A stretch of DNA of 64,000 bases from an uncultured Gammaproteobacteria bacterium (lineage in GTDB: Bacteria > Patescibacteriota > Patescibacteriia > Magasanikbacterales > UBA922), in NCBI GenBank assembly GCA_964597575.1, contig CAZQXB010000001.1:402111-466110 (forward strand). The letters are read 5' to 3'. Positions within the stretch are counted from its first letter, which is position 1; the number at the start of each line of letters is the position of its first letter. Positions 1,468 through 63,786 of the stretch are shown piece after piece. The translations under genes and the position numbers were made by a program. The notes below the pieces were generated by a model. It was not told the origin of the DNA. It was given only the letters and a program-made list of their open reading frames with translations, and did not search any database.

Positions 1468-1485
1468 GTCTAGGATGTAAAATTT

Positions 1486-2803: not shown

Positions 2804-2812
2804 AGAAGAGTT

Positions 2813-3733
2813 ATGAAGACTAAAAATACATACCAACTTCCTATTGTCTTAGCACACGTTACAAAAGTCGCAAAAGAAGGTATTGCTCATGTTGGTGACC
2901 TCATTCATTCGATTGACTACGATGCACCAATCGGTACCCCAATTACCGCTGCCCTTGATGGTGTTGTTATTGCTATAAAGCAAGATTCAGATCAAGGTGG
3001 AGGCGATCCAAAATATGAGAATGATGGAAATTATATCGAAATTCTCCATGAGAATGATGAAGTTTCAGAATACGAACATATTCTACAGCATTCTGCTAAA
3101 GTAAAGATAGGCGATGGGGTTAAAAAGGGGCAGGTTATTGCATCAGTCGGAAATACAGGGTGGAGCGAGTGTCCGCATCTTCATTTTATGGTGTACCCAA
3201 AAGGTGAGGAATATAAAACACTTGAAATTCAGTTTGAGAGTGAAGAATTCGTTGACCTGGTTGATAAAGAAGGGCGGATGCAAAAAACTCAAGTACTACG
3301 TTCAGAAGTGTCGAAGTATCCTAATTTACACATGCAAATTGTTATTGCAGTAATTTTAGATAACCAACAAAGAATTTTAGTCCATAAGAGAGCATCTACA
3401 AAAAAGGTAGATCCTGGAGCTGTCGATCATGTCTGTGGTGGGGTTCAGTCAGGAGAAACACCGATTGAGGCCGCTATACGAGAAACTACCGAAGAAACTG
3501 GGCTCGTTCCATGTAATCTAAAAGTCGTCATGCAAGGGCTAAATTCCTATGGCCGATATCGGTATTTACTTTTAGGTGAAGCCCAAGGAGAACCATCAGT
3601 TGATCCGAAAGAGGCAGAATGGGTACGCTTTATCTCGGTGGAAGATTTAAGAAATCTTTTTGAGAGTAAAAAAGAAGCTTTTGTTCATGAATTTTTTAAG
3701 GATACGGATTTAGCTATTCGTGCTACTGTCTAA
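2813..3733 (+). CDS. M23 (LytM-type) metallopeptidase domain fused to a NUDIX hydrolase domain
   Basis: M23 HxxxD and HLHF (HxH) motifs in the N-terminal half; NUDIX box GGVQSGETPIEAAIRETTEETGL in the C-terminal half; no signal peptide. Confidence 0.6.
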   Translation: MKTKNTYQLPIVLAHVTKVAKEGIAHVGDLIHSIDYDAPIGTPITAALDGVVIAIKQDSDQGGGDPKYENDGNYIEILHENDEVSEYEHILQHSAKVKIGDGVKKGQVIASVGNTGWSECPHLHFMVYPKGEEYKTLEIQFESEEFVDLVDKEGRMQKTQVLRSEVSKYPNLHMQIVIAVILDNQQRILVHKRASTKKVDPGAVDHVCGGVQSGETPIEAAIRETTEETGLVPCNLKVVMQGLNSYGRYRYLLLGEAQGEPSVDPKEAEWVRFISVEDLRNLFESKKEAFVHEFFKDTDLAIRATV

Positions 3734-4835
3734 GTATATGGAAATAAAGGCATTTTTTGGAATACTTTCATCTCTCTTCATCTTTTTAGGAGGTATTCCT
3801 TATTTGAGGGATATTCACTTAAGAAAGGCGCACCCGCATGTTCTTTCATGGATTGGCTGGGCTTTCATAACAGCTCTAGGAGCCTTTGCCATGCTGGCTG
3901 GGGGTAGTCAGTGGGCGGTTGCTATATTGCTCAGCAATACCCTTCTCTGTCTTCTTATTGTCCTATACTCAGTTTTTAAAAGAGTTGGCGTCTGGTCAAC
4001 CATGGTATGGGACTTTGTATTTTTTGGACTTGGGTTACTTGGGCTTGTGCTTTGGCAGACACTTCATCTCCCCATTCTCGCCCTCATCTGTGCGATTATT
4101 GCTGATTTTTCTTTCGGTCTCCCCACCATTGTTAAAACGTATAAAGATCCAAACTCAGAAACTCCTTTTGTCTGGGCTACTGCCACAATATCCGGAATAT
4201 TTAGTCTATTTGCTATAAGAAGTTTTGCTTTTTCTGAAGTTGCGTATCCATTGTATCTTTTTCTCTATGATGGAATTGTACTTCTTTTAGTGCTTAAGAT
4301 TTTTGTTAAAAAAAATAAAAATATTCGAAAATTGCTGGATACAATTGTTAATGAAAAAAATGAAAAGAACTGGTATGTTCCAGAATTATTTCAGCAGAAT
4401 ACGTTACCAATTTTACCAAGGGAGTTAAAAGTTATCGCTCTGCCTCCCTTATATGATGAAAACTACAATTGTTTTATCTATGCTCTGGGATTGTCGAATA
4501 ATCTTGAATTTATTAAGAAGGTGTCTGGTTTTATCTATAGCCCATTTGTTAAGAAGTTAATCGAAGAAGGAGTCCTTCGGGAATCTAAAGAAATAAAGAA
4601 AGGAACAATTATTTTATATACCAATGAAAAGAAATTTCCTGGGGAAATAGCGCATGCTGGGGTGATGAAAGATAAAGACACTGTTATTTCAAAATGGTCT
4701 TGGGGACCCACCTTAGAACATTCTCTGCTATCAGTACCTCTTTCGTATGGTGAAACATTGAAGTTTTATCATTTAGAATCTACAAATAGTGTTTTATTAG
4801 CATACGAGAAATTTAGTGCACTTAATAGGGCTTGA
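3720..4835 (+). CDS. polytopic membrane protein with C-terminal putative Cys/His hydrolase-like domain
   Basis: Five or six hydrophobic helices at the N-terminus; C-terminal NCFIYALG ... HAGVM Cys/His spacing like NlpC/P60 or CHAP-type folds. Confidence 0.35.
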   Translation: MLLSKYMEIKAFFGILSSLFIFLGGIPYLRDIHLRKAHPHVLSWIGWAFITALGAFAMLAGGSQWAVAILLSNTLLCLLIVLYSVFKRVGVWSTMVWDFVFFGLGLLGLVLWQTLHLPILALICAIIADFSFGLPTIVKTYKDPNSETPFVWATATISGIFSLFAIRSFAFSEVAYPLYLFLYDGIVLLLVLKIFVKKNKNIRKLLDTIVNEKNEKNWYVPELFQQNTLPILPRELKVIALPPLYDENYNCFIYALGLSNNLEFIKKVSGFIYSPFVKKLIEEGVLRESKEIKKGTIILYTNEKKFPGEIAHAGVMKDKDTVISKWSWGPTLEHSLLSVPLSYGETLKFYHLESTNSVLLAYEKFSALNRA

Positions 4836-4888
4836 CTGGTAAGTTGTTATCACGAATTAACCTCACACCTCAACTCACTATAGTTTGA

Positions 4889-5051
4889 GATATAGTGAGT
4901 ACTACTGTGGGGTAAGTGGAGAAATACTCGGAATATAAACATACCCTTTCTCTTCACGAATAATAGTTCCGACCTCCTTCACCAAGCTCTGCACCGAGAA
5001 ACATGGCTATAATAAGCCATGTTTTTTGTATACCCGCGTGTGGAATCGAAC
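4889..5051. repeat. inter-cassette repeat copy B (full, about 165 bp; preceded by 10-bp perfect palindrome aactcactata/tatagtgagtt at 4872-4900)
   Basis: Direct alignment to copies C and D. Confidence 0.75.
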
Positions 5052-5066
5052 TTTATGTATACTGGA

Positions 5067-5095
5067 TTGACAAAATACTCTTTTTGTGGTATTAT
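5067..5095 (+). promoter_or_regulatory. sigma70 promoter TTGACA-17-TATTAT driving the high-GC gene at 5250
   Basis: Consensus hexamers with 17-nt spacer; AGAGGAG RBS 9 nt before the ATG. Confidence 0.55.
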
Positions 5096-5249
5096 CTTTA
5101 GTCAAATTGTGTTTCAAAAATTACTAAATTTAGGTCATTTTACTGATTTAAATCTAGAAGTTTTTGACTGCTATAGCTAAACTTCTATCTTAGGTATTTG
5201 CTTAAGATATTGGTTCTCTACAATTCAATCGAAAGAGGAGTGAAGAAAA

Positions 5250-6785
5250 ATGGATAACAAGTTCTGTCCTCACGGCAAGCACGTGAAGTTCTGCGGCGAA
5301 TGCGGCAATCTGTGGTTCGAAGTGCAGGCGCCCCATGTCTGGATGAACAGCATGGACCCTGGACGAGATGCGGGGATCGGTCTGATGAAAGAGCGTCACG
5401 GTATCGTCACGGTGACTGTCGAGCAGCACCATCCGAGCCTCGGTCTTCTCGACAAGTCTGTGGTGATGGTGCATGTTACGGGACATCTCTTCGTTTGGGG
5501 TATCGAGAAGATTCTCGAAAACGCCCCGAACGTCAAAGAGATTCAGGTTCAGCCACACATGGTGAAGAAGCTGACCGACGCTCACCGTACTCTCTGTGCA
5601 AAAGCTGGAGTCAAGTTGACGAGCGGATACTCAGACCCTGACCGTGCTTGGGAAAAAGGTGAGGTGAGACGGTCGCCACGTTTCCTAAAGATACGGAAGT
5701 TCTTTCAGCTTCTCGAAGGCCAGCAAAAAAAGCTCTTCGACGAGCTCATCGAGTATGGTATCGAGTCGGCCCTCATGGCTCGGGACTACTACGAGGAAGC
5801 AAGTGACGGAAAGGAGGGGGAGGAGCCTGTCACACTGCATACTCTGTGTAAAAAGTACGGGTACAACGACAGTGTGATGGCCCACATCTCAGCTCGGATT
5901 TACTCCGTGCTAGTGTACCTCGATCCTAATTACAAAGTGGGGCAGGATTCGCGACGGCTTGCTCGTGTCATGAAGGATGATGTTGAAAGGCTTCGTGAGA
6001 AGTTCGCGACTGCAAAAGCAAGGCAGGATCAGGCAGCCGCGCTTGGTCTCCGAATTCTTCCTGTCGACATGCCACTGCAGCTCTACGATGAGTTGGAGAT
6101 GGTTGTTACTGCCCAGAGGAAGGGCTGGCTGAAGCAACTCCAGGCTGCAAGGCCGCGAGCGCATCGTGCTCTGACGCTGAGGTACGACATACGGGATACG
6201 CAAAATCCGCGTTTTCGTACCCTCGAAGAGGTGGCCGAGACGATGGGTGGCGAGGATTTCAAGACGCGCGAGAGAGCTCGTCAGTTGGTGGAGCAGGCTA
6301 TCGAGTTTTTCGTCTTGCAAGGACAGGCAAGCGGTGAAACTCTGAGAGCTGGACGCGTGCAGGAGAAAGCGACGAAGATCGTCCAGAAGAAGGCCGCTCG
6401 GGCAAAGGCTGGTCCTGTAACTCAGTTGACCAAGGTTCCTGGTCCCGTCGAAAAGCAGGTGGTGAACCTGGTTTGCCAGTCTTATGGCTTGCCTGAGACT
6501 GAGATCTTCACTCACGGCAAAGATCAGCCGTGGGCAGAAGCTCGACAGGTCATCATGGCTCTGTGGAGACGGTACCTCAACTGGTCCTACCCGCTGATCG
6601 CAAGAGAGATGGGTAAGGAAGATCACACGACGATCATACATGGTTGTCGAGAGATCGCCAGTCGTCGGAAGACCGACCGAGTGCTTGAACAGCGGATGAC
6701 GCTGATCGAGATGATGCTCGGCAAGCCGCCGCCCGACTTGAGCGCCATCGAAATTTCCCCAGATCCTTCCACTGCCTCGCAATGA
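5250..6785 (+). CDS. high-GC Zn-ribbon / sigma70-region-4-like HTH / DnaA domain IV-like HTH fusion protein (putative DNA-binding regulator or replication-initiator-like)
   Basis: N-terminal CPHGKHVKFCGECGN; RALTLRY..RTLEEVAE..TRERARQLVEQAI resembles sigma70 region 4; EARQVIMALWRRYLNWSYPLIAREMGKEDHTTIIHGCREIASRRKTD resembles DnaA C-terminal domain IV; about 58-60% GC against flanks of about 33%. Confidence 0.6.
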   Translation: MDNKFCPHGKHVKFCGECGNLWFEVQAPHVWMNSMDPGRDAGIGLMKERHGIVTVTVEQHHPSLGLLDKSVVMVHVTGHLFVWGIEKILENAPNVKEIQVQPHMVKKLTDAHRTLCAKAGVKLTSGYSDPDRAWEKGEVRRSPRFLKIRKFFQLLEGQQKKLFDELIEYGIESALMARDYYEEASDGKEGEEPVTLHTLCKKYGYNDSVMAHISARIYSVLVYLDPNYKVGQDSRRLARVMKDDVERLREKFATAKARQDQAAALGLRILPVDMPLQLYDELEMVVTAQRKGWLKQLQAARPRAHRALTLRYDIRDTQNPRFRTLEEVAETMGGEDFKTRERARQLVEQAIEFFVLQGQASGETLRAGRVQEKATKIVQKKAARAKAGPVTQLTKVPGPVEKQVVNLVCQSYGLPETEIFTHGKDQPWAEARQVIMALWRRYLNWSYPLIAREMGKEDHTTIIHGCREIASRRKTDRVLEQRMTLIEMMLGKPPPDLSAIEISPDPSTASQ

Positions 6786-6910
6786 GGCGCCCTTGAGCTC
6801 ACGCTCGGGCTTCGCGACTTCGGGTCAGTCGCAACAAATCAAACCGTCCCGATAGGTGATACTATCGGGAACATTCAAAACATCATCTCACTCGAGGTGA
6901 TTTTTTGTTT

Positions 6911-7074
6911 ATATATAGTGAGTATTACTCTCGGGTAACTGGTAAAAGGCTCGGAATATAAACATATCCTCTCTCTTCACGTATAATAGTTCCGACCCCC
7001 TTTACCAAGCTCTGCAACGAGAAACATGGCTATACAAAGCCATGTTCTTTGTATACCCCTGTGTGGAATCGAAC
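6911..7074. repeat. inter-cassette repeat copy C (full)
   Basis: Direct alignment to copies B and D. Confidence 0.75.
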
Positions 7075-7214
7075 CAAGGTGTAGTTCTAAAGAAAACTTT
7101 ATGATTTTTTTATCTAGGGTATGATATGTTCCTTTAGTTATTCTGAGTACCCTATTGTATACTCGACATACCGTGTATTCTTCAGTAGGGTACGCCCAGA
7201 ATAATCTATTTTCT

Positions 7215-7880
7215 ATGAACCGTAAAAACAACACTCTCATTGCATTACTAGTAGTTATCGTTATTCTCCTTATCGGAGGGTATGTTGTACTTGTCCAAAA
7301 AGAAAACGAACCAATGGTAGGTCCAGATAATGGAAATGGAACATCGGTTGAAATTCCATCTACCACACCATCTTCTAGTGAAGAGATAGTAAATAATGGA
7401 AGTTGGGAAAAATATACTTCTCCAGATTTGGGTATTTCATTTGAATATCCAGCAAGTCTTAGTCTCTTTCAAGAGCGTAAGGATACTGACCGCGGAGAGG
7501 GAAATTTTGTCATTCTGAAACGTGAGAATGAGCAGAGAAGATTTCTAGGAACAGTACTGGTAAGTTCTCCTGATTATATACGAGAAATTGATGGTTTTCC
7601 TTCCTATATGTCAGGAGATTATTTTTTGGATCAAAGCGAAAGTGAGATAGAAAAAATTATTAGACAGAGAATTCATGCGGTTACAGCCATTACCAAAATG
7701 CCAAATAATTTTTATGCAATTACGCAAGAATATGTGTTTGGTGATAATCCTGTAAAAGGGACATTTTATTTCACTCAAAGAAAAAATAGTGAGTTACTTA
7801 ATGTAAGTATATATCAAGTTGATGGGGTTATTAGTAAGCAAGAAGATTTAGAGAATTTTTTAGAAAGTTTCAAATTTTAA
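7215..7880 (+). CDS. hypothetical membrane-anchored/secreted protein
   Basis: ORF with N-terminal hydrophobic anchor MNRKNNTLIALLVVIVILLIGGYVVL; track ORF begins at 7155. Confidence 0.4.
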   Translation: MNRKNNTLIALLVVIVILLIGGYVVLVQKENEPMVGPDNGNGTSVEIPSTTPSSSEEIVNNGSWEKYTSPDLGISFEYPASLSLFQERKDTDRGEGNFVILKRENEQRRFLGTVLVSSPDYIREIDGFPSYMSGDYFLDQSESEIEKIIRQRIHAVTAITKMPNNFYAITQEYVFGDNPVKGTFYFTQRKNSELLNVSIYQVDGVISKQEDLENFLESFKF

Positions 7881-8013
7881 AGTTAGGAGAATTTGGTTGA
7901 GGTGATTGCGTACATGCTTGGCAGTATCCTCAACCAAATTTTGGCTGAGGTTCTTTCTAGAACTCATTGGATAACCCGATGATACTGCAAAGAAAAAATG
8001 AAGGGGTGCTGAC

Positions 8014-8110
8014 ATGCAGGCGATCGTTCGTTTTCTGCTATGTATGCTGGTGTTCTGTCCGTGGTTCGCTGCGGCAGATTACCAGGGACCTGTGTTATTT
8101 TCACCCCCCA
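8014..8110 (+). CDS. possible small high-GC hydrophobic peptide (MQAIVRFLLCMLVFCPWFAAADYQGP...), 3' extent uncertain
   Basis: GAAGGGG RBS 7 nt upstream of the ATG; high-GC hydrophobic N-terminus; reading frame runs on into AT-rich promoter-like sequence without a stop. Confidence 0.2.
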
Positions 8111-8171
8111 CTGTAAAAAATATTTACCTTAACACAAAAAAATGTTATGATAAAATCATAAGGAGGTGCAA

Positions 8172-8477
8172 ATGTCGGAATTCGAAAAAGATGCTGCGGT
8201 GCAGCTTGTGGCTGTGCTGCTTGTCGGCGGACTGCTTGTCCTGATCGCCCTGCACTTTGTTGTCTATTTTCTCTTCAGAGGCGTGCAGCCATTGGCTGCT
8301 GCTAGGATGCCTGCCACAGATCAATCTTTTTTAGAGCCAGATGCCACGCCTTGCGATGAAGAAGATCCTGAAGAGATGCGACAGTGCACAGATGCATGGG
8401 TGAGGGCAAGAGAGGCGGAGGGCGCAACTATCTTGCGGACACGAGACGGGCATGGGATTGTGGCTCTGGGCCCTTAA
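8172..8477 (+). CDS. small high-GC membrane protein with acidic C-terminus (hypothetical)
   Basis: AAGGAGG RBS and extended -10 (TGTTATGAT) upstream; one TM helix; about 60% GC. Confidence 0.4.
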   Translation: MSEFEKDAAVQLVAVLLVGGLLVLIALHFVVYFLFRGVQPLAAARMPATDQSFLEPDATPCDEEDPEEMRQCTDAWVRAREAEGATILRTRDGHGIVALGP

Positions 8478-8529
8478 CGATAGTGAAATCGATCCAGGGC
8501 TCCAGCCTCCAACGATCTGCTTCTGCTCA

Positions 8530-8585
8530 CAGAGTCACTTGCTATTGCTGTGACTCTTTTTTATGTTCCGTGCGTGGAATCGAAC
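8530..8585. repeat. inter-cassette repeat partial copy E (different hairpin agagtcac..gtgactc + T-run, conserved 3' motif ccgtgcgtggaatcgaac)
   Basis: 3' motif matches other copies. Confidence 0.55.
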
Positions 8586-8597
8586 TAAGTTAGATCA

Positions 8598-9236
8598 TTG
8601 AAAAGAATGAGGCTTTATGCTAGTGCATGTGTATTCTTAGATCTATCTTCTATTTTGTTTATTATGAATAATAAAGGTTTGTACGTCATCATTGCGTTTC
8701 TTTTGGTCATCCTTTGCGTTGTTGGATATAAAGCATATTCTGTTTCTGATCGTACATTGTCTCCAAATGAGCAGTTCTTAAATCAAGAAAATAACCCATC
8801 AAATGAAAATAAAGGCAATACGCTTACTGATTCTCTCAAAAACAGTAAGGGTTATAGCGCTGGCGATACACGTGATATCTCTTCGTTATCTAGTTCGGAT
8901 ACGAGTAAAGAACTCGATATTGCATTGATCCAGGATGTTAAAACTATTCAAAATCAAAATATCTCTTATAAGTTTTATCGAGTTGGATTTGGCGATGCGC
9001 CTCCACACTATAGTAATGGACAAATTATCGTTGAAGTAACGACGAATCAAAAAGGTCCAAGTCGATGGTATTATTTTAATACTGATATTATTGATGCTGA
9101 TTCTATTGAATCACTCCTGTTTAGTGGTGAGGATGTGCGTATGTCTTGTAAAACAGGTAAACCAAATGGTACATGTTTATATACGATAAAATTTCAACCA
9201 GACTTGGAGATGTTAAAAATTTATAAAGTAAATTAG
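8598..9236 (+). CDS. hypothetical membrane-anchored secreted protein
   Basis: ORF; TM anchor LYVIIAFLLVILCVVGY; real start may be an internal Met near 8663. Confidence 0.4.
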   Translation: MKRMRLYASACVFLDLSSILFIMNNKGLYVIIAFLLVILCVVGYKAYSVSDRTLSPNEQFLNQENNPSNENKGNTLTDSLKNSKGYSAGDTRDISSLSSSDTSKELDIALIQDVKTIQNQNISYKFYRVGFGDAPPHYSNGQIIVEVTTNQKGPSRWYYFNTDIIDADSIESLLFSGEDVRMSCKTGKPNGTCLYTIKFQPDLEMLKIYKVN

Positions 9237-9378
9237 TAGACCTCCTTGACACTAAGGTTAAATTACGTTAGGATTTCGAGCGACCAAAAGGTCATCACAT
9301 GCGTGGTGATTTTTTGTTTACTCATTCCTGTTCTTGTGTTACTTTTAATTTGTAGAATAACAAAATTTTATTTTTCGT

Positions 9379-10119
9379 ATGTCAGAAGGTCCAAAACGTT
9401 TTGAGTTAGGCCAGATGTTTCTTCGAGAAACAAATAGTATTCCACAAGCAGACAAATGGTTAGAAAACAGGGCTGAATGGATGGTTGGGGCTGCTCAAAT
9501 CAAAAAATATTTGGCACCAAAAATTGAATTTCGTGACAGATTGGCTGGAGAGGTAGAAAAAGGAGTAAAGGTGTTAGCTATTGGTGCAGGAAAAGGACAT
9601 GAGCTTGATGAAATGGACAGCATTCTTCCTGGCTCAGAAATCATAGGTCTTGACCCCGATGATTTTTATTCTCGACCAGTAAAGCAAAAACTAGAAAAAA
9701 CTGCCCATAATGCGTCATATCTTCCAGAAACTATTCGTGCAGAAAATTTAGAGGGTGTAGAAAATGCTTCACTAGATGGTGTAACATTATTTTTTGTACT
9801 CCATCATATTGATGAACAAAAACACGGCGCTGTTTTAAAAGAAATTCATCGTGTTCTTAAGCCAGATGGAAAGGTGTTTATCGCTGAAGATTTGGTAGAT
9901 AACGATGAGGAAAGAAAAATAACCGAAAGAACGGATCGTATTTTGAATACTGAGTTATCAGGCAAGAATTCACATCATTACCGAAGTATTCCTGAGTGGA
10001 AAGTTTTTTTTCATACATACGGCTTTGAAATAATAGAGGTAAGCGAACAGAAGCCTGATAAAGTTCGCCATGGATTTTTTGTATTAGAAAAAGCAAACAT
10101 TTTACAAAATAATACATAG
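9379..10119 (+). CDS. class I SAM-dependent methyltransferase
   Basis: Motif I VLAIGAGKGHEL and post-I acidic residue; LKPDGKVFIAE motif. Confidence 0.55.
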   Translation: MSEGPKRFELGQMFLRETNSIPQADKWLENRAEWMVGAAQIKKYLAPKIEFRDRLAGEVEKGVKVLAIGAGKGHELDEMDSILPGSEIIGLDPDDFYSRPVKQKLEKTAHNASYLPETIRAENLEGVENASLDGVTLFFVLHHIDEQKHGAVLKEIHRVLKPDGKVFIAEDLVDNDEERKITERTDRILNTELSGKNSHHYRSIPEWKVFFHTYGFEIIEVSEQKPDKVRHGFFVLEKANILQNNT

Positions 10120-23704: not shown

Positions 23705-23814
23705 TATAAAAAACGGAAAAACGCCCTTAAAGACGTCGCGTAAATACTATATGAAAGGGTTTGGGGCGGAGGAGGGACACGGGTCTCTCCTCCGCGGGGG
23801 GTGTGGGCCGATGA

Positions 23815-24210
23815 TCAGGCGAAGGTGTTGTACCCGAGGTGCGGCTTGGTTCGCGTGAGCTCGATTGCCGTGAGCTTCCCGCTCATCTGTCCGATGGCGC
23901 TGTGGAACGCCGCCACCAGATCTCTCGAAGCGATCATGGTGGTGCCATCTTTGGTCGTGTGGGCCGACGCCGCGGCTTCGAGCCACTCCTCGATCTTGGT
24001 GGTGTCAGCACCAGTCACTTCGAATTCTTCGGTGGTCGTTTTCTTGTCCCCACCATACACGATGGTAAGGGTGAAACGAAGGCCGTTTCCCTGCTCACCA
24101 ACACATACTCGTAGTTTCATTTCCGAACCTCCTACTTTCTTGTCTTCTCCTCTGAGCCAAAACCCCGAGCCTTCTTGTCTTCGGGGGAGTATAGGGATCC
24201 CATCTTCCAT
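23815..24210 (-). CDS. hypothetical high-GC protein (131 aa)
   Basis: Balanced amino-acid composition; consensus TTGACA-17-TATACT promoter on the minus strand at 24282-24254; about 58% GC; overlapping plus-strand ORFs look low-complexity. Confidence 0.4.
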   Translation of the reverse strand: MEDGIPILPRRQEGSGFWLRGEDKKVGGSEMKLRVCVGEQGNGLRFTLTIVYGGDKKTTTEEFEVTGADTTKIEEWLEAAASAHTTKDGTTMIASRDLVAAFHSAIGQMSGKLTAIELTRTKPHLGYNTFA

Positions 24211-24299
24211 ATACTCCTACGAACACAAACTAACAAAGGAGTATACTACTTGTTTACTTTTTTGTCAAGTAATAGGGGCCGTGCTATCATAAATCTACT

Positions 24300-28223: not shown

Positions 28224-28317
28224 TCTGCTCTTTTTTACCTTATTTGAGAGGAAAAACCATTGACAGACGCAGCTTTTTCTGCTAGGCTTCTCCGCGAGGC
28301 AAAGGAGGCCTGTCTTG

Positions 28318-28863
28318 ATGTGGAAGAAATGGCGTTACCTTCTTGTGGCTGGAGCGGCCTTCATTGCCGCGGGACTTCTGTACTTCTCAACCTACTTCCA
28401 GAATTTGACGGAGGAGGGGCAGGCGGTGCACGGAGTCATCTTCGTCATCATGCTCGCTGTCTTGTGGGTAGGGATTGAGATTGGAGATGCGCAGGCTCGG
28501 TCTGAGCTCCGTGCCCCACAGCATAAGGATCCCGAGGAAGACGACGGCCTCGACGATGATCCCGAGGAGTACCAGGACAGTGTCGACGACGAGGAGGTGG
28601 TAGCGGATTTCAAGTCCACGGTTGAGCGCTGGCTGGGGAAGGATGAGGACATGCTTCAGTGGCTCAGTGATGCTCGTCACTACATGCGGGAAGACAATCG
28701 CGCGGCTGATGATGACGCGCGTGACCTTGCACTTCTCATGGTGGTGTATGCCTATGCTGGTGGGCATGAGTTTCCGAGCGAGCACTACCCTGCGTATCTC
28801 GATGAAGTGCGGACATTCATTGAGTGGCTCAAGGCACGCAACGTTTGGCCTGCTCGCAGATGA
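28318..28863 (+). CDS. hypothetical high-GC membrane protein with acidic cytoplasmic domain
   Basis: Two N-terminal TM helices; DPEEDDGLDDDPEEYQDSVDDEE tract; AAAGGAGG RBS; about 60% GC. Confidence 0.4.
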   Translation: MWKKWRYLLVAGAAFIAAGLLYFSTYFQNLTEEGQAVHGVIFVIMLAVLWVGIEIGDAQARSELRAPQHKDPEEDDGLDDDPEEYQDSVDDEEVVADFKSTVERWLGKDEDMLQWLSDARHYMREDNRAADDDARDLALLMVVYAYAGGHEFPSEHYPAYLDEVRTFIEWLKARNVWPARR

Positions 28864-28885: not shown

Positions 28886-28951
28886 CCGGACACCTTTTCT
28901 CACAAAAGTCCGGTCAATGCAAAAACAGCTTTTACACAAAGGCTGTTTTTG
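28886..28951 (+). terminator. 3' module: hairpin CCGGAC..GTCCGG followed by terminator AAAAACAGC..GCTGTTTTTG
   Basis: Two consecutive hairpins and a T-run; homologous module at 42271-42330. Confidence 0.55.
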
Positions 28952-29314
28952 TTTCTCTTCATGTTTTTTCTTGCGATAATACTCGGTTCAGTCTATGCTA
29001 TAGAGGTAGGTTATTTTAACATACTATATGTCTGCGAACGGAGCACACACCAATCAAGGAGGGCATCATGATCGTGAAGGTCGTTCCAATCAAGATGATA
29101 AACCAGGTTCAGGTCGGGGACGTAAAAAAAGTACAGGTAAAAATAACGCAAAACAGCAGGGCGGTTTGCCTTCCCAAATTGGGAGCCGTGATAAAAAATA
29201 GTTTCAGAAAAATTTTGTTGGGAGAAAGGCGGCCACACGGCTGTCTTTTGGCATTAGGGGCATTTTTGTCAAGCATTCCTAGCCCGTGGTACACTGTCCC
29301 TATACAAACAATAT

Positions 29315-34071: not shown

Positions 34072-34147
34072 GTGCGCGCCGAGGGATTCGAACCCCCGAC
34101 CCTCTCGGTGTAAACGAGATGCTCTAACCAACTGAGCTAGGCGCGCC
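34072..34147 (-). tRNA. tRNA-Val (anticodon TAC)
   Basis: Reverse-complement cloverleaf GGCGCGCCTAGCTCAGTTGGTTAGAGC...anticodon loop TTTACAC...GGTTCGAATCC...GGCGCGCA. Confidence 0.8.
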
Positions 34148-34192
34148 TTAATTTGTGCCCATACTATACCGATATTTTGTTTCGGTGTCAAG

Positions 34193-35326
34193 ATGAATTC
34201 AGAAGAACGTGATATACTGGGTACATCTATGGTATACGATTCAACGGAACACAAGGAATTTCCCCTTCGAAAACATCAGGGAATATTTGCTCGTGAGCTT
34301 AGTATCTTTGAGGCTTCCGCTTTAATAATTTCAGGTACGATTGGGGCGGGTATCTTAGGGTTGCCGTATGCTCTTCGTGAGGTTGGGGTGTGGTGGGGGC
34401 TTCTCCTCATTATTTCGATGGGCGGGCTCATGCTGCTTCTCAATCTTCTTATCGCTTGGCTCGCGAATGTTGCGGGTCAGCCTCTGCAGCTCGTTGGACT
34501 TGCTAAAAAATATTTGGGACGAGGTGGGGAATTGCTCATGAGTGCGATAATGTACTCCACACTTTTTGGAGTGCTTACGGTGTATATTATTGGGGCAGGG
34601 GAGGCGCTTCAAGCATTGTTTGGTGGAGATAGAATTTTGTGGAGTATTTTATTCTACGCTGTGGCCACCACTGTTGTGGTGCTCGGTATAAAAACATTAA
34701 AAAAGGCAGAACTTTTTCTTTCACTGGGAATTCTTGCGGTTGTTATCGTTCTTTCTTTTGTCAGTGTGCCACATATCAGCATACCCACTTTACACACGCC
34801 GTCCCTGGTTCAGTTTCTCGCTCCGTATGGCATTCTTTTATTTGCCTTTCATGGAACCACATCTATTCCAGAAGCGCACGCGCTGCTTCCAAAAAATCGG
34901 CGGCATTTCCGTTTGGCGGTGCTTCTTGCAATGATAATTATTACTGCAGTGTATTCCGTATTTTCTTTTACGGTGCTGAGCGTTACCGGCCCCCTCACGA
35001 CTCCTATTGCGACCATTGGGCTCGGCGAAAAAATCGGCGGCATCATATTTTCTTTAGGAAATATTTTTGCTCTTCTCGCGATGTCCACCAGTTTTCTTAT
35101 GGCCTCACTTTCACTTCGTGATTCACTGGTGTGGGATAAAAAAATATCACGAGTGGCGGCTCTCGTGATTGTAAGTACGGTTCCATTTCTTTTGTTTGTT
35201 TTGGGTTTGCGGCAATTTGCTGAAACGATTGATTTGATCGGCGGCTGGCTCATGAGTGCTGAAACGATTCTTATTCTTCTTATGGTGTTAGTCGCATTTC
35301 GTCAAAAAAGAAAACAAACGCCATAG
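34193..35326 (+). CDS. amino-acid permease-like membrane transporter (aromatic amino acid/Aa_trans-like)
   Basis: Eleven predicted TM helices; GTIGAGILGLPYA motif typical of Trp/Tyr permease-type transporters. Confidence 0.45.
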   Translation: MNSEERDILGTSMVYDSTEHKEFPLRKHQGIFARELSIFEASALIISGTIGAGILGLPYALREVGVWWGLLLIISMGGLMLLLNLLIAWLANVAGQPLQLVGLAKKYLGRGGELLMSAIMYSTLFGVLTVYIIGAGEALQALFGGDRILWSILFYAVATTVVVLGIKTLKKAELFLSLGILAVVIVLSFVSVPHISIPTLHTPSLVQFLAPYGILLFAFHGTTSIPEAHALLPKNRRHFRLAVLLAMIIITAVYSVFSFTVLSVTGPLTTPIATIGLGEKIGGIIFSLGNIFALLAMSTSFLMASLSLRDSLVWDKKISRVAALVIVSTVPFLLFVLGLRQFAETIDLIGGWLMSAETILILLMVLVAFRQKRKQTP

Positions 35327-35345
35327 GGCGTTTGAGTTTAGTGGT
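35316..35345. terminator. bidirectional terminator AAACGCCATAGGGCGTTT between convergent genes
   Basis: Perfect 7-bp hairpin with A-run and T-run flanks. Confidence 0.55.
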
Positions 35346-35379
35346 AAGTCGTTGTCTGGACGACTGTTGGTGAAATGGT

Positions 35380-35766
35380 TTACGTTTTCTTCTTCAGGGC
35401 CTCCCGCACTCTTTCCTTGAGTTTGCTCGGATCGAAGGGCTTATCGAGGTATTCGTCCACCCCGGCGCTGCGAGCCTCGGCTTCGACGTTGCTTGAGCTC
35501 ACCATGATGATGGGGAACGTCCAGCCGCCCGAACGGATCCTGGTGACCATCTGGAGCCCGTTGGTGCTAGGCATGGCGTAGTCAGTGATGAGAAGGTCGG
35601 GCTTCTCGCCACCGGTGAGCATGTCGCCCACATCATCGGGGTGCGAGTAAGTTCTCACCTCGCAGAATCCCCGGAGAGTTCGGTCCATGGCCCGTGAGAC
35701 CAGTACCTCGTCATCGAGGATCCATACCTCGGGCTTCTTTTCGTTTTTACTGTCTTCTTCTGTCAT
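35380..35766 (-). CDS. stand-alone response-regulator receiver (CheY-like REC) protein, high GC
   Basis: ILDDE acidic pocket, phospho-acceptor LLITDYAMP, conserved K in LDKPF; own TTGACA-18-TATAGT promoter at 35837-35808 on the minus strand. Confidence 0.6.
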   Translation of the reverse strand: MTEEDSKNEKKPEVWILDDEVLVSRAMDRTLRGFCEVRTYSHPDDVGDMLTGGEKPDLLITDYAMPSTNGLQMVTRIRSGGWTFPIIMVSSSNVEAEARSAGVDEYLDKPFDPSKLKERVREALKKKT

Positions 35767-35909
35767 GTCGGAAAATCCTCCCTAAATCAACACTCGTCCA
35801 GACCACACACTATACCACAAAATAGCCCTTTTGTCAAGAGGGGAAAGGGGTGTTCACTTCATCTATTTTTAGCCTAAAAACAGGTGAAGGGAGCCGAGAA
35901 CGTGAGGTA

Positions 35910-36783
35910 TCACGGTCGGCGAGGGTTCATGTCCGCGATCTTTTTTGCGAATTCGTCGCAGAGCGCAGTTGCTGCGGGGTTTTCCGAGAGGGTAAGGACA
36001 AGGTTCGCTTGATGCCATTCTACGTTGAAGAGTGCGGTGCACGTTTCGTGGGCGGTTTTCGGTTTGGCATTCACCATATCGAGAAACACAGAAGCCCGAC
36101 TGACTTGGGCGATACCGATGAGGAGGAGCAGTGTTTCGTGTGGGTGAGTACCTAAGTCTCCTCTCGCGCCGAGGATTGTGGCGTAGGCCCGAAGTCGCGC
36201 TGTCGCGGCCGCAATCTGAAGCTCCGAGTTCGACAGAAGGTCATCGCACTTTCCCACATCCCAGCCCGAATACTCCTTGATGTACCTTCGGCACTCTTCC
36301 GTCGTCATCGAGAAGAGTCCAAGGTATCCGGCGGTATTCTGGGTGGAATTTTGTTCGCTCAGTGCGTGGGCGAGAGCGCGCATGACTTCTGCGGAAAAAG
36401 GAATGCAGTTGGCATACATCTTGTAGTCAGCGACGAACAGTGGGTCCTGGAGCATGAGGGGGATAGTACTCGAGGGCTGCACTCTGCTGGCGCCCTGAGT
36501 CATCACTCCCCGAAGTGTGGGTTGGGTAAGCAGGCATTGTGCCTCGTTCGGTTCCCCGAACGGCCAGGCCCCCAGATACTTTAGTCCTTCGAAGAAGCGT
36601 CCGGAGATTTCGAGCGAGTGCCTCACGTCGCTATGGGTGCGAGCGAGGACGGAGTCACGACTCTCAGTCTCCGGAGCCTTGACCGGCTCGACATTCAACT
36701 GCTCTGCCGTGCAGCTGTAGCCACAGAAGAGCGTGAGGAAGCCGAGGGCGGCGAAGACGTGCGGGAACATTCTTGTGTTCATT
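35910..36783 (-). CDS. high-GC secreted protein, possibly lysozyme-like/SLT-like
   Basis: Signal peptide MNTRMFPHVFAALGFLTLFCG; ...NTAGYLGLFSMT... resembles the SLT GLMQ region (weak); own TTGACA-17-TATAGT promoter and AAAGAGG RBS. Confidence 0.4.
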
Positions 36784-37013
36784 TGAAGGCCTCTTTTTTC
36801 TGCCGTGTTTCTTGTCGAGAAAGCACGGTCATACACTATAGCTAGGTCATGGTCGTTTGTCAATGTAAAAAAGGAATTTTTGGAAAAACAAAAACCGCCG
36901 TGTGGCGGTTTGTTCACTATCATTTTTCTTCATCCTTATGAAAGAAAATGAAAGGGGCCGAGATCAATACGCGTTGTGCGTTGATCTCGGCTGGGAGGTG
37001 GTAGGACGGTCGC

Positions 37014-37946
37014 CTACTGCTTGGGCTGGTACGCTTTGCACACGCCCACAGCGTGCCGCTTCTCCGCAGCGGTGAGTGGGTCGAGTTCTCGGCCGACCTT
37101 CTTCATCCAGGCTGCATCCACGATCTTCTCGCAGAGATTGCCGAGAGAGCCATCGGGGAGGGGCTTGGAGGAGAGAACCATGTGGAGGGTGCCATCGCCG
37201 AAGTAGTATCCGGTGTAGAGGACCATGAGGTACATGGTCTCGTCTCTGGAGTATGCGAATCCACCGTTCTTCTCGTGGTCAGCGATCTCGAGAGACAGCC
37301 TGCGTACGAACCCTGCGGCCCCCGCAACCTGGATCTCGACATTTTCGAAGGTCTCGCCGTCCTTCGCGAAAGGGGTACAGTCCGTGCCTGCTTCCCAAAC
37401 AGGGAGAAGGACATCTGCGCAGGTCTTGTCGAGCATCTCGAACAGTCCGTTGCCTCGGATCCATCGAACCCCTCGGGGGTTAGCGGTCGTCCATCCCGCA
37501 TGAGGATCCTCCTTCGAAACGACGCGAGCGAGGATCTCCAGGAACTCAGCACCATGGGGGGTGCAGCCCCCATACTTCCGGTACAGGGCACTGATCTGGG
37601 ACTTGTTGATCCGAGCGCGCGTACTCGTGAGTACGCGACCCTGGAGTTCGTGGTGATCGAGAGGGCATGGCAGCCCGCTCTGGTCGCCGCTGTTGATCGG
37701 GCTGTCCGTGACCAGGTTGACTGCCTCGATGAGGTTGTTCTTCCTGGTCGCGTACGTCGCGATCTCGCGGTTCAGGGTGCTGATCACCATACTCCGGTAT
37801 CGGGCCGTTGTTCCTGTGTCCGTTCCGGAAGCGATGGTCGACAGCGACTCGGTCGCGACGACACCGTTGCCCTGGCATCCGTTCATGAGGATGAACACGC
37901 TGATTGCGATACTGAGAAGGGCTATTACGATTGCAATACGTGCGAT
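37014..37946 (-). CDS. high-GC secreted/lipoprotein-like hypothetical protein
   Basis: GTG start 6 nt after AAAGGAG; signal peptide MIARIAIVIALLSIAISVFILMNGC; own TTGACA-17-TATAGT promoter at about 38054-38026. Confidence 0.4.
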   Translation of the reverse strand: MARIAIVIALLSIAISVFILMNGCQGNGVVATESLSTIASGTDTGTTARYRSMVISTLNREIATYATRKNNLIEAVNLVTDSPINSGDQSGLPCPLDHHELQGRVLTSTRARINKSQISALYRKYGGCTPHGAEFLEILARVVSKEDPHAGWTTANPRGVRWIRGNGLFEMLDKTCADVLLPVWEAGTDCTPFAKDGETFENVEIQVAGAAGFVRRLSLEIADHEKNGGFAYSRDETMYLMVLYTGYYFGDGTLHMVLSSKPLPDGSLGNLCEKIVDAAWMKKVGRELDPLTAAEKRHAVGVCKAYQPKQ

Positions 37947-38104
37947 CACAGCAAACTCCTTTGGTTGTAAGGTGAACCACTCATGCCTCCACATTGGGGC
38001 AGATATGGCTTCTAACTATAGCATATTTTAGCCATTTTGTCAAGAGATGCGAGCCTCGGAATCTCATTGCTTTTTTGCCTGAGTTGAGCTATACTTGATT
38101 CATT

Positions 38105-38920
38105 ATGAATTTGTTTCACGCTATTCTTCTCGGGGTGATCCAGGGGCTCACAGAATTTTTACCTGTATCTTCTTCGGGGCATCTTATTTTTGTACCCCAT
38201 CTATTTGGCTGGGCAGACCAAGGTTTAACCTTTGATCTCACGGTGCATTTGGGAACTCTTCTTGCGGTTATGGGGTATTTCCGCGGTCGTCTTTTAACAA
38301 CGATTCGAACCGCATTTCTTCCAAAAGAGCAGGGTATTAAAGAGCGGCAATTTTTGGCTCTCGTTCTCTTGTCGATTATCCCCGCGGGAATGATCGGATT
38401 CTTTTTTGGAGATACGATTGAGACAGCCTTTCGTTCCCCAAAGTTGGTCGCTTGGAATCTTATTTTTTGGGGTTTGGTGCTCTACGCAGCCGACTGGTAC
38501 CGAACAAAAAAAACAGAAGCGGGTGTTCCCGGAGGAGAGAGTCAGAATATTACAAAACGACAAATGGTTTCTATGGCATTGGCCCAAGCCGTGGCTTTGG
38601 TGCCTGGCACAAGTCGCTCAGGTATTACCATGACTGCCGGAATGTTTGCGGGCTTAAGTAAAAAAGCAGCCACCGAGTTTTCGTTTCTCATGAGTATTCC
38701 GGTGATTGGCTTATCGGCACTTGTGAAATTTGCGGATCTGGCCACAGGAACTGTTTCGAGTGCGCCGACCAGTATGCTTGTTGTGGGTTTTGTGTGCGCG
38801 TTTGTGTCTGGGCTTTTTGCGATTTCTTTTCTCATGCGTTTAATTGAGCGGTGGAGTTTCTTGCCTTTTACCATATACCGCATACTCGTCGGAGTTCTTA
38901 TTTTATTTTTTCTGGCCTAA
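38105..38920 (+). CDS. uppP: undecaprenyl-diphosphate phosphatase
   Basis: GVIQGLTEFLPVSSSGHL signature. Confidence 0.85.
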   Translation: MNLFHAILLGVIQGLTEFLPVSSSGHLIFVPHLFGWADQGLTFDLTVHLGTLLAVMGYFRGRLLTTIRTAFLPKEQGIKERQFLALVLLSIIPAGMIGFFFGDTIETAFRSPKLVAWNLIFWGLVLYAADWYRTKKTEAGVPGGESQNITKRQMVSMALAQAVALVPGTSRSGITMTAGMFAGLSKKAATEFSFLMSIPVIGLSALVKFADLATGTVSSAPTSMLVVGFVCAFVSGLFAISFLMRLIERWSFLPFTIYRILVGVLILFFLA

Positions 38921-41862: not shown

Positions 41863-42246
41863 ATGGCTAAAAAGACACCTGCGAAAAAGCAAAAAACCGT
41901 GGCCAAGAAAAACCCGAAAAAGAAGGCTAAGGCGGTTCGGTACTACTGTGCTGCCTGCGAGTCGAAGGGCGATCCTACGGTCTGGAAGGATCATGACCCT
42001 AAAGCATGTCCGCGATGCGGCGAAGACGGTGACATCTTCCGCGACGAGCTCTTCGAGTGCAACATTTGCGAGGAGACGTGCCCTGAGGCCGAACAAGATG
42101 ATGCCAAGGTCGGCGACCCGTGTAGCATGTGTGCCGTTGATGTGAAGAGTGGAGTAAGAACTCCGGCCAATGCCGGGGCGTGGAAAACGAGGAAGCCGCG
42201 CAAGATCAACTGGTCTCCGAAAGTGCCGGTAGCCAAAAAGAAGTGA
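41863..42246 (+). CDS. high-GC lysine-rich double Zn-ribbon protein (hypothetical nucleic-acid binding)
   Basis: CAAC...CPRC and CNIC...CSMC pairs; K-rich termini; AAGGGGG RBS; about 60% GC. Confidence 0.4.
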   Translation: MAKKTPAKKQKTVAKKNPKKKAKAVRYYCAACESKGDPTVWKDHDPKACPRCGEDGDIFRDELFECNICEETCPEAEQDDAKVGDPCSMCAVDVKSGVRTPANAGAWKTRKPRKINWSPKVPVAKKK

Positions 42247-42270: not shown

Positions 42271-42330
42271 GTCCGACGTTCTTCGGACACTACAAAAACA
42301 GCTTTTCCGAGTAAGGCTGTTTTTGTTTTC
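42271..42330 (+). terminator. 3' module: hairpin GTCCGA..TCGGAC followed by terminator AAAACAGC..GCTGTTTTTG
   Basis: Same architecture and near-identical terminator sequence as 28886-28951. Confidence 0.55.
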
Positions 42331-54652: not shown

Positions 54653-55198
54653 CTAAGCCCCGGCCGTGAGTTGCTTTACATCAGCGGCAGGAAGCGCCTT
54701 CATTGCGCCCAGGGCGAGCGAGAAGATGGTTGAGCTTCCGGGGTTCGACGCGTGGCGCTCGAGAAGCCCGGTGCCCGCAAGGGTCTGCAGTGCCGCCCAC
54801 ATACCGAACCGGTCAAAGTTTTCGCCCTCGCGCTCAATACCCTCTCTGACCTCCTGGAGCGTATATCCCTTTGCTGGTTCAGTGGGATTCTCGATCCATT
54901 GAGCGACGAACCAGTTGCTGACCCGAGCGATGAGAGACACGTCATCCTCTCGTGGGTCCGCGAGGTCAGCCGGACGAAATACCACGACTGGTTTTGGGGT
55001 GAGGACAAGCTCCGCTGAGAGGGCTCCGGCGCGAAGAAGGTCAGCCAGCTGGGGTGAGACATCATCCTCTGTCGTTCCGGTAGCCTCAGCAATCTGTGCT
55101 GCAGTGAAACCGAATAGGGTCTCCATCGGTCTTTTTTCCCACATGTTCTCGATTGTGTTCGGCAAAGATCGGGCGATTTGATTCTTATTCAGGGCCAT
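54653..55198 (-). CDS. hypothetical high-GC protein (181 aa)
   Basis: TTGACC-17-CATACT promoter overlapping the murJ stop; ACGGAGGA RBS; about 60% GC. Confidence 0.4.
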   Translation of the reverse strand: MALNKNQIARSLPNTIENMWEKRPMETLFGFTAAQIAEATGTTEDDVSPQLADLLRAGALSAELVLTPKPVVVFRPADLADPREDDVSLIARVSNWFVAQWIENPTEPAKGYTLQEVREGIEREGENFDRFGMWAALQTLAGTGLLERHASNPGSSTIFSLALGAMKALPAADVKQLTAGA

Positions 55199-55239
55199 TC
55201 TTGTCCTCCGTAGGCCACCAGTATGCCACAACAATCCAC

Positions 55240-62244: not shown

Positions 62245-63786
62245 TTACACATCACGGAATACCTCTATCTTTGCTCCAAGTGCATTCAGGCGGTTCGCTA
62301 AATCTTCGTAGCCTCGATTAATGTTATAGACATTTCGAAGAATCGATGTTCCCTCAGCTGCAAGCATCCCGATCATAATAATGACCGATGGTCGGAGTGC
62401 CGGAGGGCAGATCATTTCGGTGGCTTTCAGTTTGGTGGGGCCGGTCACATAAAAACGGTGCGGGTCAGCTAAAATAGTTTCTGCGCGCATTTTGTCGAGT
62501 TCTTTGTAGTAAATTGCGCGTTCCTCATATACCCAGTCATGGATAAATGTCTGACCCTTGGCTTGGGTGCCAATAATCGCAAAGAACGGCAAGTTGTCCA
62601 TGTTTATTCCAGGGTAGGGAAGCGCATGAATTTTATCGGTGAGTGCTGTTAGGTTCGATGGGTAAGTTTGAATGTCAACCAATTTTACTTTGCCGTTGTC
62701 ACCGAGATACCGTTTTAAAATTTTATACTTAAAGCCCATTTTCTTCAGTTTGAGTAATTCCATTTCTAAAAAGTCGATTGGGCAACGCTCGACCGTGATT
62801 GATGACTTCGTCACAATCGCAATAGTCAGAAGTGACATGGCTTCAATCGGGTCTTCTCCAAGGTAATATTCTACATTTTTTTCTACTTCACCCTGAAGCC
62901 CGTGCACGGTTAGGGTAGACGTACCCACGCCTTCAACTTTTACTCCAAGTTTTTCCAGGTAGAAACACACATCCTGCACCTGGTAGTTTGCTGACGCATA
63001 TTTAATAACGGTTTTTCCAGGAATAAGGGCGGCCGCCATGAGCACCGCTTCGGTAACAGTGTCTCCTGCTTCGTACAAAACAATTTCGCGATTTTTTTTC
63101 AAACCTTTGTGTGAAACGTGATAATATTTTGAGCTCGTTTCAATATCTACCCCAAGTTCTTCAAGCGCGTACACATAGGGCTGAATCGTACGAGAACCTA
63201 AGCGGCAGCCACTTGCCTGGGGGAGGTCAAATTTTTCTAAACGGTGAATGAGGGATCCGACCATCATGATGACACTCCGTGTTTTGGCAGCCGAGTCATA
63301 CGCAATATTTTTCATCGAAAATACTTTTGGTGGCGTAATGTGCAAATCAGGTCCTTGCCAGGTCGTTTTTACTCCAATCGATTCGAGAACCTCAACAATA
63401 CGATTCACTTCTTCAATTTTGGGGGTATTCTTAATAACCGTTGTCCCTTTGTTCATGAGGGAGGTACACAAAATACCCACCGCTCCATTTTTGGATGTTC
63501 GAACTTTAATCGCGCCTTTCAGAGTATGGCCACCTTGAATACGAAAGTTCACGGTACCTGGGCGAGAAAGCGAGACGATTTCTCGGTCAAGAGCCTGGCT
63601 AATAGTGGCTAGAGTTTTGGTCGAAAGATTTTGTTCCCCTTTTTCAATACGAGCAACCGCAGATTGGGTCGTACCAATTTTCTTTGCGAGTTCGGCTTGG
63701 GTCATGCGACGCTCCTCACGGAGTTGGGCGATCATCGATCCGATGGAAAAAAGAGCGTGTTTTGAGGAGGTGTCTGCTTTTGCCAT
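62245..63786 (-). CDS. murA: HTH_XRE DNA-binding domain fused to UDP-N-acetylglucosamine 1-carboxyvinyltransferase (MurA/EPT family)
   Basis: N-terminal RMTQAELAKKIGTTQSAVARIEKGEQNLS (XRE HTH) continuous in frame with FRIQGGHTLKGAIKVRTSKNGAVGIL MurA N-terminus. Confidence 0.7.
   Translation of the reverse strand: MAKADTSSKHALFSIGSMIAQLREERRMTQAELAKKIGTTQSAVARIEKGEQNLSTKTLATISQALDREIVSLSRPGTVNFRIQGGHTLKGAIKVRTSKNGAVGILCTSLMNKGTTVIKNTPKIEEVNRIVEVLESIGVKTTWQGPDLHITPPKVFSMKNIAYDSAAKTRSVIMMVGSLIHRLEKFDLPQASGCRLGSRTIQPYVYALEELGVDIETSSKYYHVSHKGLKKNREIVLYEAGDTVTEAVLMAAALIPGKTVIKYASANYQVQDVCFYLEKLGVKVEGVGTSTLTVHGLQGEVEKNVEYYLGEDPIEAMSLLTIAIVTKSSITVERCPIDFLEMELLKLKKMGFKYKILKRYLGDNGKVKLVDIQTYPSNLTALTDKIHALPYPGINMDNLPFFAIIGTQAKGQTFIHDWVYEERAIYYKELDKMRAETILADPHRFYVTGPTKLKATEMICPPALRPSVIIMIGMLAAEGTSILRNVYNINRGYEDLANRLNALGAKIEVFRDV

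Follow-up and report, generated by a model that had tools for sequence, protein, structure and literature searches.

A GC-rich locus beside uppP encoding an orphan CheY-like receiver and two lipoprotein-type paralogues with a putative SLT-related core in a Magasanikbacterales contig

The DNA analyzed here is a stretch of 64,000 nucleotides (hereafter the window) at positions 402,111 to 466,110 of contig CAZQXB010000001.1, from an uncultured bacterium that GTDB places in the Magasanikbacterales of the Patescibacteriota. At 35380-37994 of the window, on the minus strand, the list of open reading frames (ORFs) and Pfam place three genes between an amino-acid permease gene and uppP, both of which are on the plus strand. 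They encode a single-domain receiver (REC) and two secreted proteins (P2 and P3). With confidence that is about evenly balanced, we favor the view that these genes form a conserved, lineage-restricted and rapidly diverging envelope locus, not a fresh island, and that its lipoproteins bind peptidoglycan rather than cut it. The P2/P3 family is undescribed and extremely rare, and it is a variant within the lysozyme-like/SLT kind, while the receiver itself is ordinary. The persistent composition anomaly together with strong individual promoters is unusual, and its mechanism is not yet explained.

The genes and their neighbors are listed below; GC3 denotes the GC content of third codon positions, and GC1 and GC2 those of the first and second positions.

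34193-35326, plus strand: amino-acid permease, flanking core gene convergent with REC (Pfam)
35380-35766, minus strand: REC, single-domain CheY-like receiver of 128 amino acids (Pfam)
35910-36782, minus strand: P2, secreted protein of 290 amino acids, paralogue of P3 and putative SLT-like member (ORF, paralogy, profile)
37014-37949, minus strand: P3, lipoprotein-type secreted protein of 311 amino acids, signal peptide ...FILMNGC (ORF, GC3 pattern)
38105-38920, plus strand: uppP (BacA), flanking core gene divergent from P3 (Pfam)

The GC content of the three genes is 0.57-0.60, up from about 0.45, and their GC3 is 0.74 (REC), 0.67 (P2) and 0.75 (P3) compared with 0.41 +/- 0.09 in the other 50 window genes. 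The three GC-rich minus-strand genes of the initial annotation were thus found where it had placed them. In a 100-nucleotide profile, the high GC was confined to the coding parts, and the intergenic promoter and terminator DNA had 34-47% GC.

The P2/P3 family and its relation to the SLT domain

P2 and P3 are paralogous, with 23% identity over 235 amino acids (E 2e-7). Word-indexed homologue searches with either protein returned only P2 and P3 themselves, but when 1.84 billion cluster representatives were searched exhaustively by HMMER with a profile of P2 and P3, three further proteins were obtained, P0007 (E 3e-19), P0008 (E 1e-16) and P0009 (E 3e-12), and one repeat artefact. Each of the five members begins with a hydrophobic stretch and then a Cys. 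The initial annotation had called two secreted proteins, and the signal sequence followed by Cys in both P2 and P3 agreed with it. The N-terminal ends read LMNGC in P3, GLMAC in P0009, FTGC in P0008, SLGC in P0007 and GYSC in P2; those of P2 and P3 depart from the classic L-[AS]-[GA]-C. The five-member alignment contains six conserved cysteines and the invariant residues S142, G155-L-F, Q189 and R198 (P2 numbering), and the family has a long N-terminal helix with a QCPLxHxEL motif.

When the five-member family was aligned by hhalign with the SLT domains of Escherichia coli Slt70, EmtA, MltC, MltD and MltF, a probability of 75.7% (E 2.4e-5) was obtained over 118 columns, and the core-only alignment reached 84.6% (E 6.8e-6). 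The score was about 41, compared with 8-16 (15.7 or less) for 32 reversed or column-shuffled control alignments. The initial annotation had noted weak lysozyme/SLT-like features in one of the two proteins. This hint was upheld at the family level, and it applies to both P2 and P3. Against Pfam SLT, P0009 scored 17.3 bits (E 0.0037) in the same motif region, below the cut-off of 21.3 bits. The curated SLT threshold (PF01464) was reached by no family member, and P2 and P3 were without any match. No Pfam match to an Rpf-type transglycosylase was seen even at E = 10, and this candidate was rejected.

The family alignment of about 116-118 columns holds the three motif regions in the same order as the SLT enzymes of PF01464 (Slt70, MltC, MltD, EmtA, MltF). 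E-S-x-x-N-P corresponds to x-S-x-x-N-P, G-L-M-Q to G-L-F, and A-Y-N-x-G-x-G to G-x-x-x-G-x-G. As in the SLT enzymes, the conserved Ser comes directly after the end of a helix, and the proteins are predicted to be secreted or lipid-anchored. The family is unlike them in its six conserved cysteines, its long QCPLxHxEL helix, its scores below every curated threshold and its small size of about four known clusters, and in that no structural match was obtained. A further difference is the catalytic Glu, which is missing in P2, P3, P0007 and P0008. The column is occupied by Leu141 in P2, Val in P3, Tyr in P0007 and Leu in P0008, and only P0009 has Glu. The Ser that follows this column is invariant and is the Ser of the E-S motif in the hhalign register. 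Homology to SLT thus extends across the motif regions in the family, but P2 and P3 lack the catalytic Glu.

An AlphaFold model built from the five-sequence alignment was all-alpha, with a predicted local distance difference test (pLDDT) of 73 and a predicted template modelling score of 0.72; a model from P2 and P3 alone was unusable (pLDDT 41). Foldseek searches of the pLDDT-73 model against PDB and BFVD returned no significant match and no lysozyme fold. The putative relation to SLT rests on sequence profiles and is unconfirmed by structure. As judged from these profiles, P2 and P3 have a core that is remotely related to the SLT (GH23, goose-lysozyme-like) domain.

Because P2 has Leu and P3 has Val where the E-S motif has its general-acid Glu, non-cutting glycan binding may be expected of them, and we suggest that the two proteins probably bind peptidoglycan rather than cut it. 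The alternative that P2 and P3 are active muralytic enzymes, that is, working lytic transglycosylases or lysozymes with a shifted acid that open the own or the host wall, is doubtful but carries some weight. It agrees with the remote homology over all three motif regions, the E-S motif retained in P0009, the position of the genes next to the cell-wall gene uppP, and the presence of P2 Glu143 and P3 Glu148/Asp149 within one helical turn of the canonical position. However, the Glu column reads L, V, Y and L in four of the five members and no alternative acid is conserved family-wide, in addition to the Pfam and Foldseek results given above. Muralytic activity of P2 and P3 is not predicted, as the canonical catalytic Glu is absent in both.

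Relatives of the locus and the question of recent transfer

Through the three homologues, relatives of the locus were found on contigs of 1.2-3.9 kb. On two of them (L037 and L038), P0009 is divergent from a uppP fragment whose product is 74% identical to the window UppP, and a GC3 of 0.77 in P0009 stands beside 0.43 in uppP. The intergenic promoter and 5' untranslated region (5'UTR) align with those of the window, and so does the downstream stretch of hairpin, terminator and next promoter. These flanks are 55-58% identical with conserved blocks, while the proteins are 28% identical, and the second promoter of L038, which follows P0009, matches the window P3 promoter at 31 of 32 positions. On contig L036, P0008 (GC3 0.70) has its own TTGACA promoter and adjoins rpmE-prfA-prmC (GC3 0.35-0.38).

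On contigs L034 and L035, a REC-like gene that is frameshifted and degenerate comes after the P2-like P0007. It shows 30% identity to REC over 46 amino acids (E 2e-5) and has the same elements in its 5'UTR and 3' hairpin as REC in the window. From these two pairs of contigs it follows that the uppP-lipoprotein and lipoprotein-receiver adjacencies recur in other lineages. The REC-like gene (L034 1173-1532) is split over two frames in both of these independent assemblies, and its pocket has Ser-Asp instead of Asp-Asp; decay of the receiver seems to be under way in this lineage. A scan of GTDB species genomes with UppP found no close relative (best match 47% identity) and added no synteny, and an exact look-up of UppP and REC for strain variants returned only the same contig.

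The initial annotation regarded the three genes as an island that interrupts the run from the permease to uppP. A recent horizontal acquisition, in which a three-gene block from a GC-rich donor was inserted at this place and has not yet ameliorated, is improbable in our judgment. It would explain the difference in GC3 from the rest of the window, the absence of close relatives of the three genes and their strand, which is opposite to that of the neighbors. A sharp GC and GC3 shift limited to a few adjacent genes without annotated function is also what horizontally transferred genomic islands show. However, the promoters, 5'UTRs and terminators resemble those of the host in both composition and style, and the same site with alignable flanks is occupied in a diverged relative by a member of GC3 0.77. 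The initial annotation had named, as evidence against an island, relatives with the same genes at similar GC in the same place and with an adjacent kinase; the member beside uppP matches this in part, but no adjacent kinase was seen. The P2-like/REC-like adjacency of L034 and L035 also speaks against the island reading.

Features of mobility gave the same picture. No direct repeats flank the locus, and no integrase or transposase was found in the scanned ORFs of the window. A tRNA-Val gene lies 1.2 kb from the locus, beyond the permease gene, and was rejected as an integration site because the permease lies between. An integron-like cassette was also rejected, since every gene is promoted separately and neither an integrase nor attC is present. 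No donor was found among 1.84 billion representatives, and protein, DNA and pattern searches of phages, plasmids and IMG/VR viral contigs were likewise empty. The locus therefore has the atypical composition of an island, but it is not absent from the same site in relatives and it shows no mobility gene, att repeat or insertion at an adjacent tRNA gene.

The age of the anomaly also bears on this question. At 68 fourfold-degenerate sites of uppP, the window and L037 had an identity of 0.37, compared with 0.25 for random sequences, which corresponds to about 1.4 substitutions per site and is near saturation. By a rough two-state estimate on these 68 sites, an inherited GC3 excess would have fallen to between a quarter and a half of its starting value, and to reach the observed 0.75 by neutral decay after a single ancestral acquisition, an ancestral GC3 above 1 would be needed. 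Because of this, the high GC3 must have been re-established repeatedly or actively maintained. Two lineages with more than one turnover of their neutral sites retain a GC3 near 0.75, and the locus is a testable compositional anomaly that is not explained by recent transfer.

We also considered that the promoter/5'UTR and terminator regions act as sockets, serving as homology arms for the repeated replacement or conversion of GC-rich coding segments, as exchangeable cassettes, from strain to strain. We give little probability to this explanation, and equally little to its variant in which recurrent recombination, by replacement or by GC-biased conversion, would both maintain the high GC3 and make the surface lipoproteins diverse. 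The flanks are alignable while the proteins are only 28% identical, the second promoter of L038 is nearly the same as that of P3, and the amelioration arithmetic rules out one old acquisition. P3 is 28% identical to P0009 at the same position and 32% identical to P0008 at another locus, and it follows that the family is either fast-diverging in place or exchanged. Furthermore, own near-consensus promoters are enriched among the GC-rich genes of the window (6/8, including REC, P2 and P3, versus 5/45 of the others; Fisher p = 4.6e-4). On the other hand, no donor-cassette pool, recombinase or repeats were found, the relatives are short contigs, P0007 is not GC-rich, and fast evolution in place with selection on codon content would look the same. 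If cassette exchange were true, it would be an undescribed diversification mechanism in ultra-small bacteria, and it would extend to scattered, individually promoted GC-rich orphan genes of this genome and of other small-genome metagenome contigs.

Proposed role of the locus

In the envelope locus that we favor, P2 and P3 would be exported, attached by a lipid anchor to the membrane's outer face and stabilized by disulfides, and they may bind the glycan strands of the own or a partner cell wall. The high GC3 would be a property maintained in the coding parts rather than a trace of recent transfer. The lipoproteins appear to diverge very fast, with 28% identity to the same-position relative compared with 74% for the adjacent UppP. 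Such divergence is expected of exposed surface proteins. REC may receive its phosphoryl group from a small phosphodonor or from a kinase whose gene lies elsewhere, and it may act via protein contacts; its link to the lipoproteins is suggested by the conserved adjacency only.

Attachment to other cells is thought to be the way of life of ultra-small host-dependent bacteria, and few of their surface proteins have an assigned function. A very rare lipoprotein family with a putatively degenerate peptidoglycan-enzyme core is a candidate for wall binding or partner recognition, because its genes have strong promoters and its evolution is far faster than that of the neighbors. The variable lipoproteins of Mycoplasma are an example of fast-evolving surface lipoproteins in host-dependent bacteria with reduced genomes. 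Tandem paralogous lipoprotein genes, strong individual promoters and extreme divergence are common to both, but no phase-variation repeats, invertible promoters or silent cassettes were found at P2 and P3.

Several points weigh against the envelope locus as proposed here. Sequence and profile searches with P2 and P3 gave zero matches in Pfam, NCBIfam, PHROG and PDB, and what speaks for peptidoglycan binding is remote homology only. P2 Glu143 and P3 Glu148/Asp149 lie closely behind the conserved Ser and might serve as a replacement acid. P0007 has a GC3 of 0.48 and does not share the high GC. The full three-gene order was seen in no single relative contig of 1.2-3.9 kb, and the true orthology of P3 is uncertain because P3 is no closer to P0009 than to P0008. 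Finally, the scan for kinases covered the 64-kb window, with the other 93% of the genome outside it.

The receiver

REC matched Pfam Response_reg (PF00072) at residues 14-121 of 128 with 67.9 bits (cut-off 30.2 bits, 1e-18), and no domain besides the receiver was found by Pfam. Its best natural PDB match is a CheY homologue. In alignments with CheY homologues and with a designed receiver, residues D18, D19, D62, S90 and K109 coincide with those of the active site, so that both the domain score and the acidic pocket, phospho-acceptor Asp, Ser and Lys are those of a single-domain response regulator. HisKA, HATPase_c and phosphotransfer domains were not found in about 48 window ORFs by Pfam scan or precomputed Pfam marks. 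The description of an orphan CheY-like receiver with neither an output domain nor a histidine kinase nearby was therefore correct for the window. A word search of 5.8 billion proteins gave no close relative and returned only REC itself.

REC resembles regulators of the CheY, Spo0F, DivK and PilH type in its complete receiver fold, its intact residues and the lack of an output domain. It differs from them in that no chemotaxis, pilus, phosphorelay or kinase genes are present in the window, and in its GC-rich gene and the complementary 5' and 3' UTRs of its mRNA.

Promoters, terminators and untranslated regions

The signals around the three genes are as follows:

38015-38043, minus strand: P3 promoter, TTGACA-17-TATAGT with a TG extended -10, alignable with L037/L038
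36957-36991, minus strand: strong stem-loop directly 3' of the P3 stop, partly conserved in L037
36892-36911, minus strand: P3 intrinsic terminator (terminator scan)
36835-36863, minus strand: P2 promoter, TTGACA-17-TATAGT (pattern scan)
35857-35889, minus strand: AU-rich hairpin between P2 and REC, without a U tail, at best a weak terminator
35809-35837, minus strand: REC promoter, TTGACA-17-TATAGT with a TG extended -10, 81% identical to the P3 promoter over 32 nucleotides
35788-35806, minus strand: 5'UTR arm of an inverted repeat bracketing REC (complementarity)
35346-35369, minus strand: 3'UTR hairpin and arm (AGTCGTCCAGACAACGACTT), complementary to the 5'UTR arm
35315-35334, minus strand: REC intrinsic terminator, overlapping the 3' end of the convergent permease gene

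The exact TTGACA-17-TATAGT sequence occurs four times in 64 kb, compared with 0.05 expected, and the copies precede P3, P2, REC and tRNA-Val. The relaxed form TTGACA-N16-18-TANNNT has 13 copies in the window compared with 1.6 expected, which indicates that this is the genome's own promoter style. The P3 promoter sits in a divergent control region of 155 nucleotides that is common to P3 and uppP. Shine-Dalgarno sequences were found 6 nucleotides before GTG 37949 (AAGGAG), 7 before ATG 36782 (AAGAGG) and 10 before ATG 35766 (AGGGAGG). These results support the earlier reading that each gene has a consensus promoter and a ribosome-binding site of its own. The claim that terminators separate the genes is two-thirds right: it stands after P3 and after REC, but the gap between P2 and REC has only the AU-rich hairpin. 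The stem-loop after P3 has a folding energy of -29.5 kcal/mol over a stretch of 92 nucleotides (z = -5.3).

The locus consists of three apparent monocistronic units, each with a near-consensus sigma-70 promoter whose hexamers are identical to those of the tRNA-Val promoter. The tRNA-Val gene (34072-34146) has this TTGACA-17-TATAGT promoter at 34163-34191. As it is used by tRNA-Val, the promoter sequence suggests that the three genes may be expressed at a high constitutive level.

The two arms that bracket REC pair at 17 of 19 nucleotides, and the duplex energy of -30.2 kcal/mol was reached by 3 of 500 shuffles. The same pairing was found around the degenerate REC-like gene of L034 (about 1135-1150 with 1554-1573; -30.8 kcal/mol, 0 of 500 shuffles), and this common UTR pairing exists despite a protein identity of about 30%. 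The 20-nucleotide 3' element AGTCGTCCAGACAACGACTT is identical in the window and L034 and is a single copy in the window. The arms could be an interaction between the 5' and 3' ends of the mRNA or remnant cassette ends.

Gene models

The public annotation of this region is wrong twice, as the P3 locus is called on the plus strand and P2 is over-extended. The plus-strand call has the following position:

37053-37970, plus strand: shadow ORF of 305 amino acids, public gene call P0003, with a GC1 of 0.735 that is a mirror image of the minus-strand GC3; considered not to be genuine

On the minus strand, P3 shows GC3 > GC1 > GC2 as in the neighboring genes and has a promoter, a Shine-Dalgarno site, a signal peptide and homologues, and the ORF antisense to it has no conservation at the loci of the homologues. 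For these reasons the minus strand is taken as coding, and a real plus-strand gene at 37053-37970 was rejected. P3 starts at GTG 37949; ATG 37994 is not conserved in L037/L038. Minus-strand P3 is missing from the public protein collection because the public call sits on the wrong strand. The error hid P3 from the protein databases, and the same error may hide other members of the family.

The start of P2 is ATG 36782, downstream of the P2 promoter and its AAGAGG site. The public ORF of 337 amino acids begins at 36923, crosses the P3 terminator and the promoter of P2 itself, and is 47 codons too long; homology begins at residue 48 of this call. The disagreement on the strand of P3 and the start of P2 might be taken as a sign of an assembly chimera or of non-coding ORFs, but such an artefact is hardly credible, since three samples and an independent Logan assembly contain the same contig, the flanks run on without a break and are conserved in relatives, the homologues share the conserved Cys and motif columns, and the frame-specific GC pattern fits coding.

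Other features of the window

Further GC-rich genes (GC3 0.59-0.65) stand among the core genes at 5250-6785, 23801-24292, 28315-28863, 41863-42246 and 54653-55234, and most of them have no family match. Two of them are single-gene units, at 28315-28863 (a membrane and acidic protein) and 41863-42246 (a Lys-rich, Cys-rich, zinc-ribbon-like protein). Both end in near-identical terminators (AAAAACAGCTTTT...AAGGCTGTTTTTGTTT) at about 28918-28955 and 42294-42328. A separate GC-rich hairpin precedes each of these terminators, and the same two-hairpin layout is present after P3 and REC.

A low-GC block at 340-10119 (GC3 0.23-0.31) encodes a GT4 glycosyltransferase, an M23 peptidase-NUDIX fusion, a DUF7689 protein and a methyltransferase. 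Within this block, at 5250-6785, its low GC is broken by a GC-rich gene for a protein of 511 amino acids with a DnaA C-terminal helix-turn-helix (HTH). The block and this GC-rich gene are a second kind of compositional mosaic in the window. Unusual domain fusions of core genes were observed for HTH_3 with MurA (EPSP_synthase family) at 62245-63786 and for the M23 peptidase with NUDIX at 2813-3733. Gene content, including these fusions, and the small genome, a contig of 0.91 Mb, suggest that the bacterium probably belongs to the Patescibacteria (CPR).

The promoter TCTTGACAAAA-N5-AAAATATGCTATAG was also found in ten metagenome contigs of the Joint Genome Institute (L039-L048). These contigs are mostly of low GC, and the promoter stands mostly before small ORFs of secreted or membrane type. 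Roughly half of the ORFs are GC-richer than their contig, as in L047 with a GC3 of 0.80 and in L040 with a GC content of 0.55 compared with 0.41.

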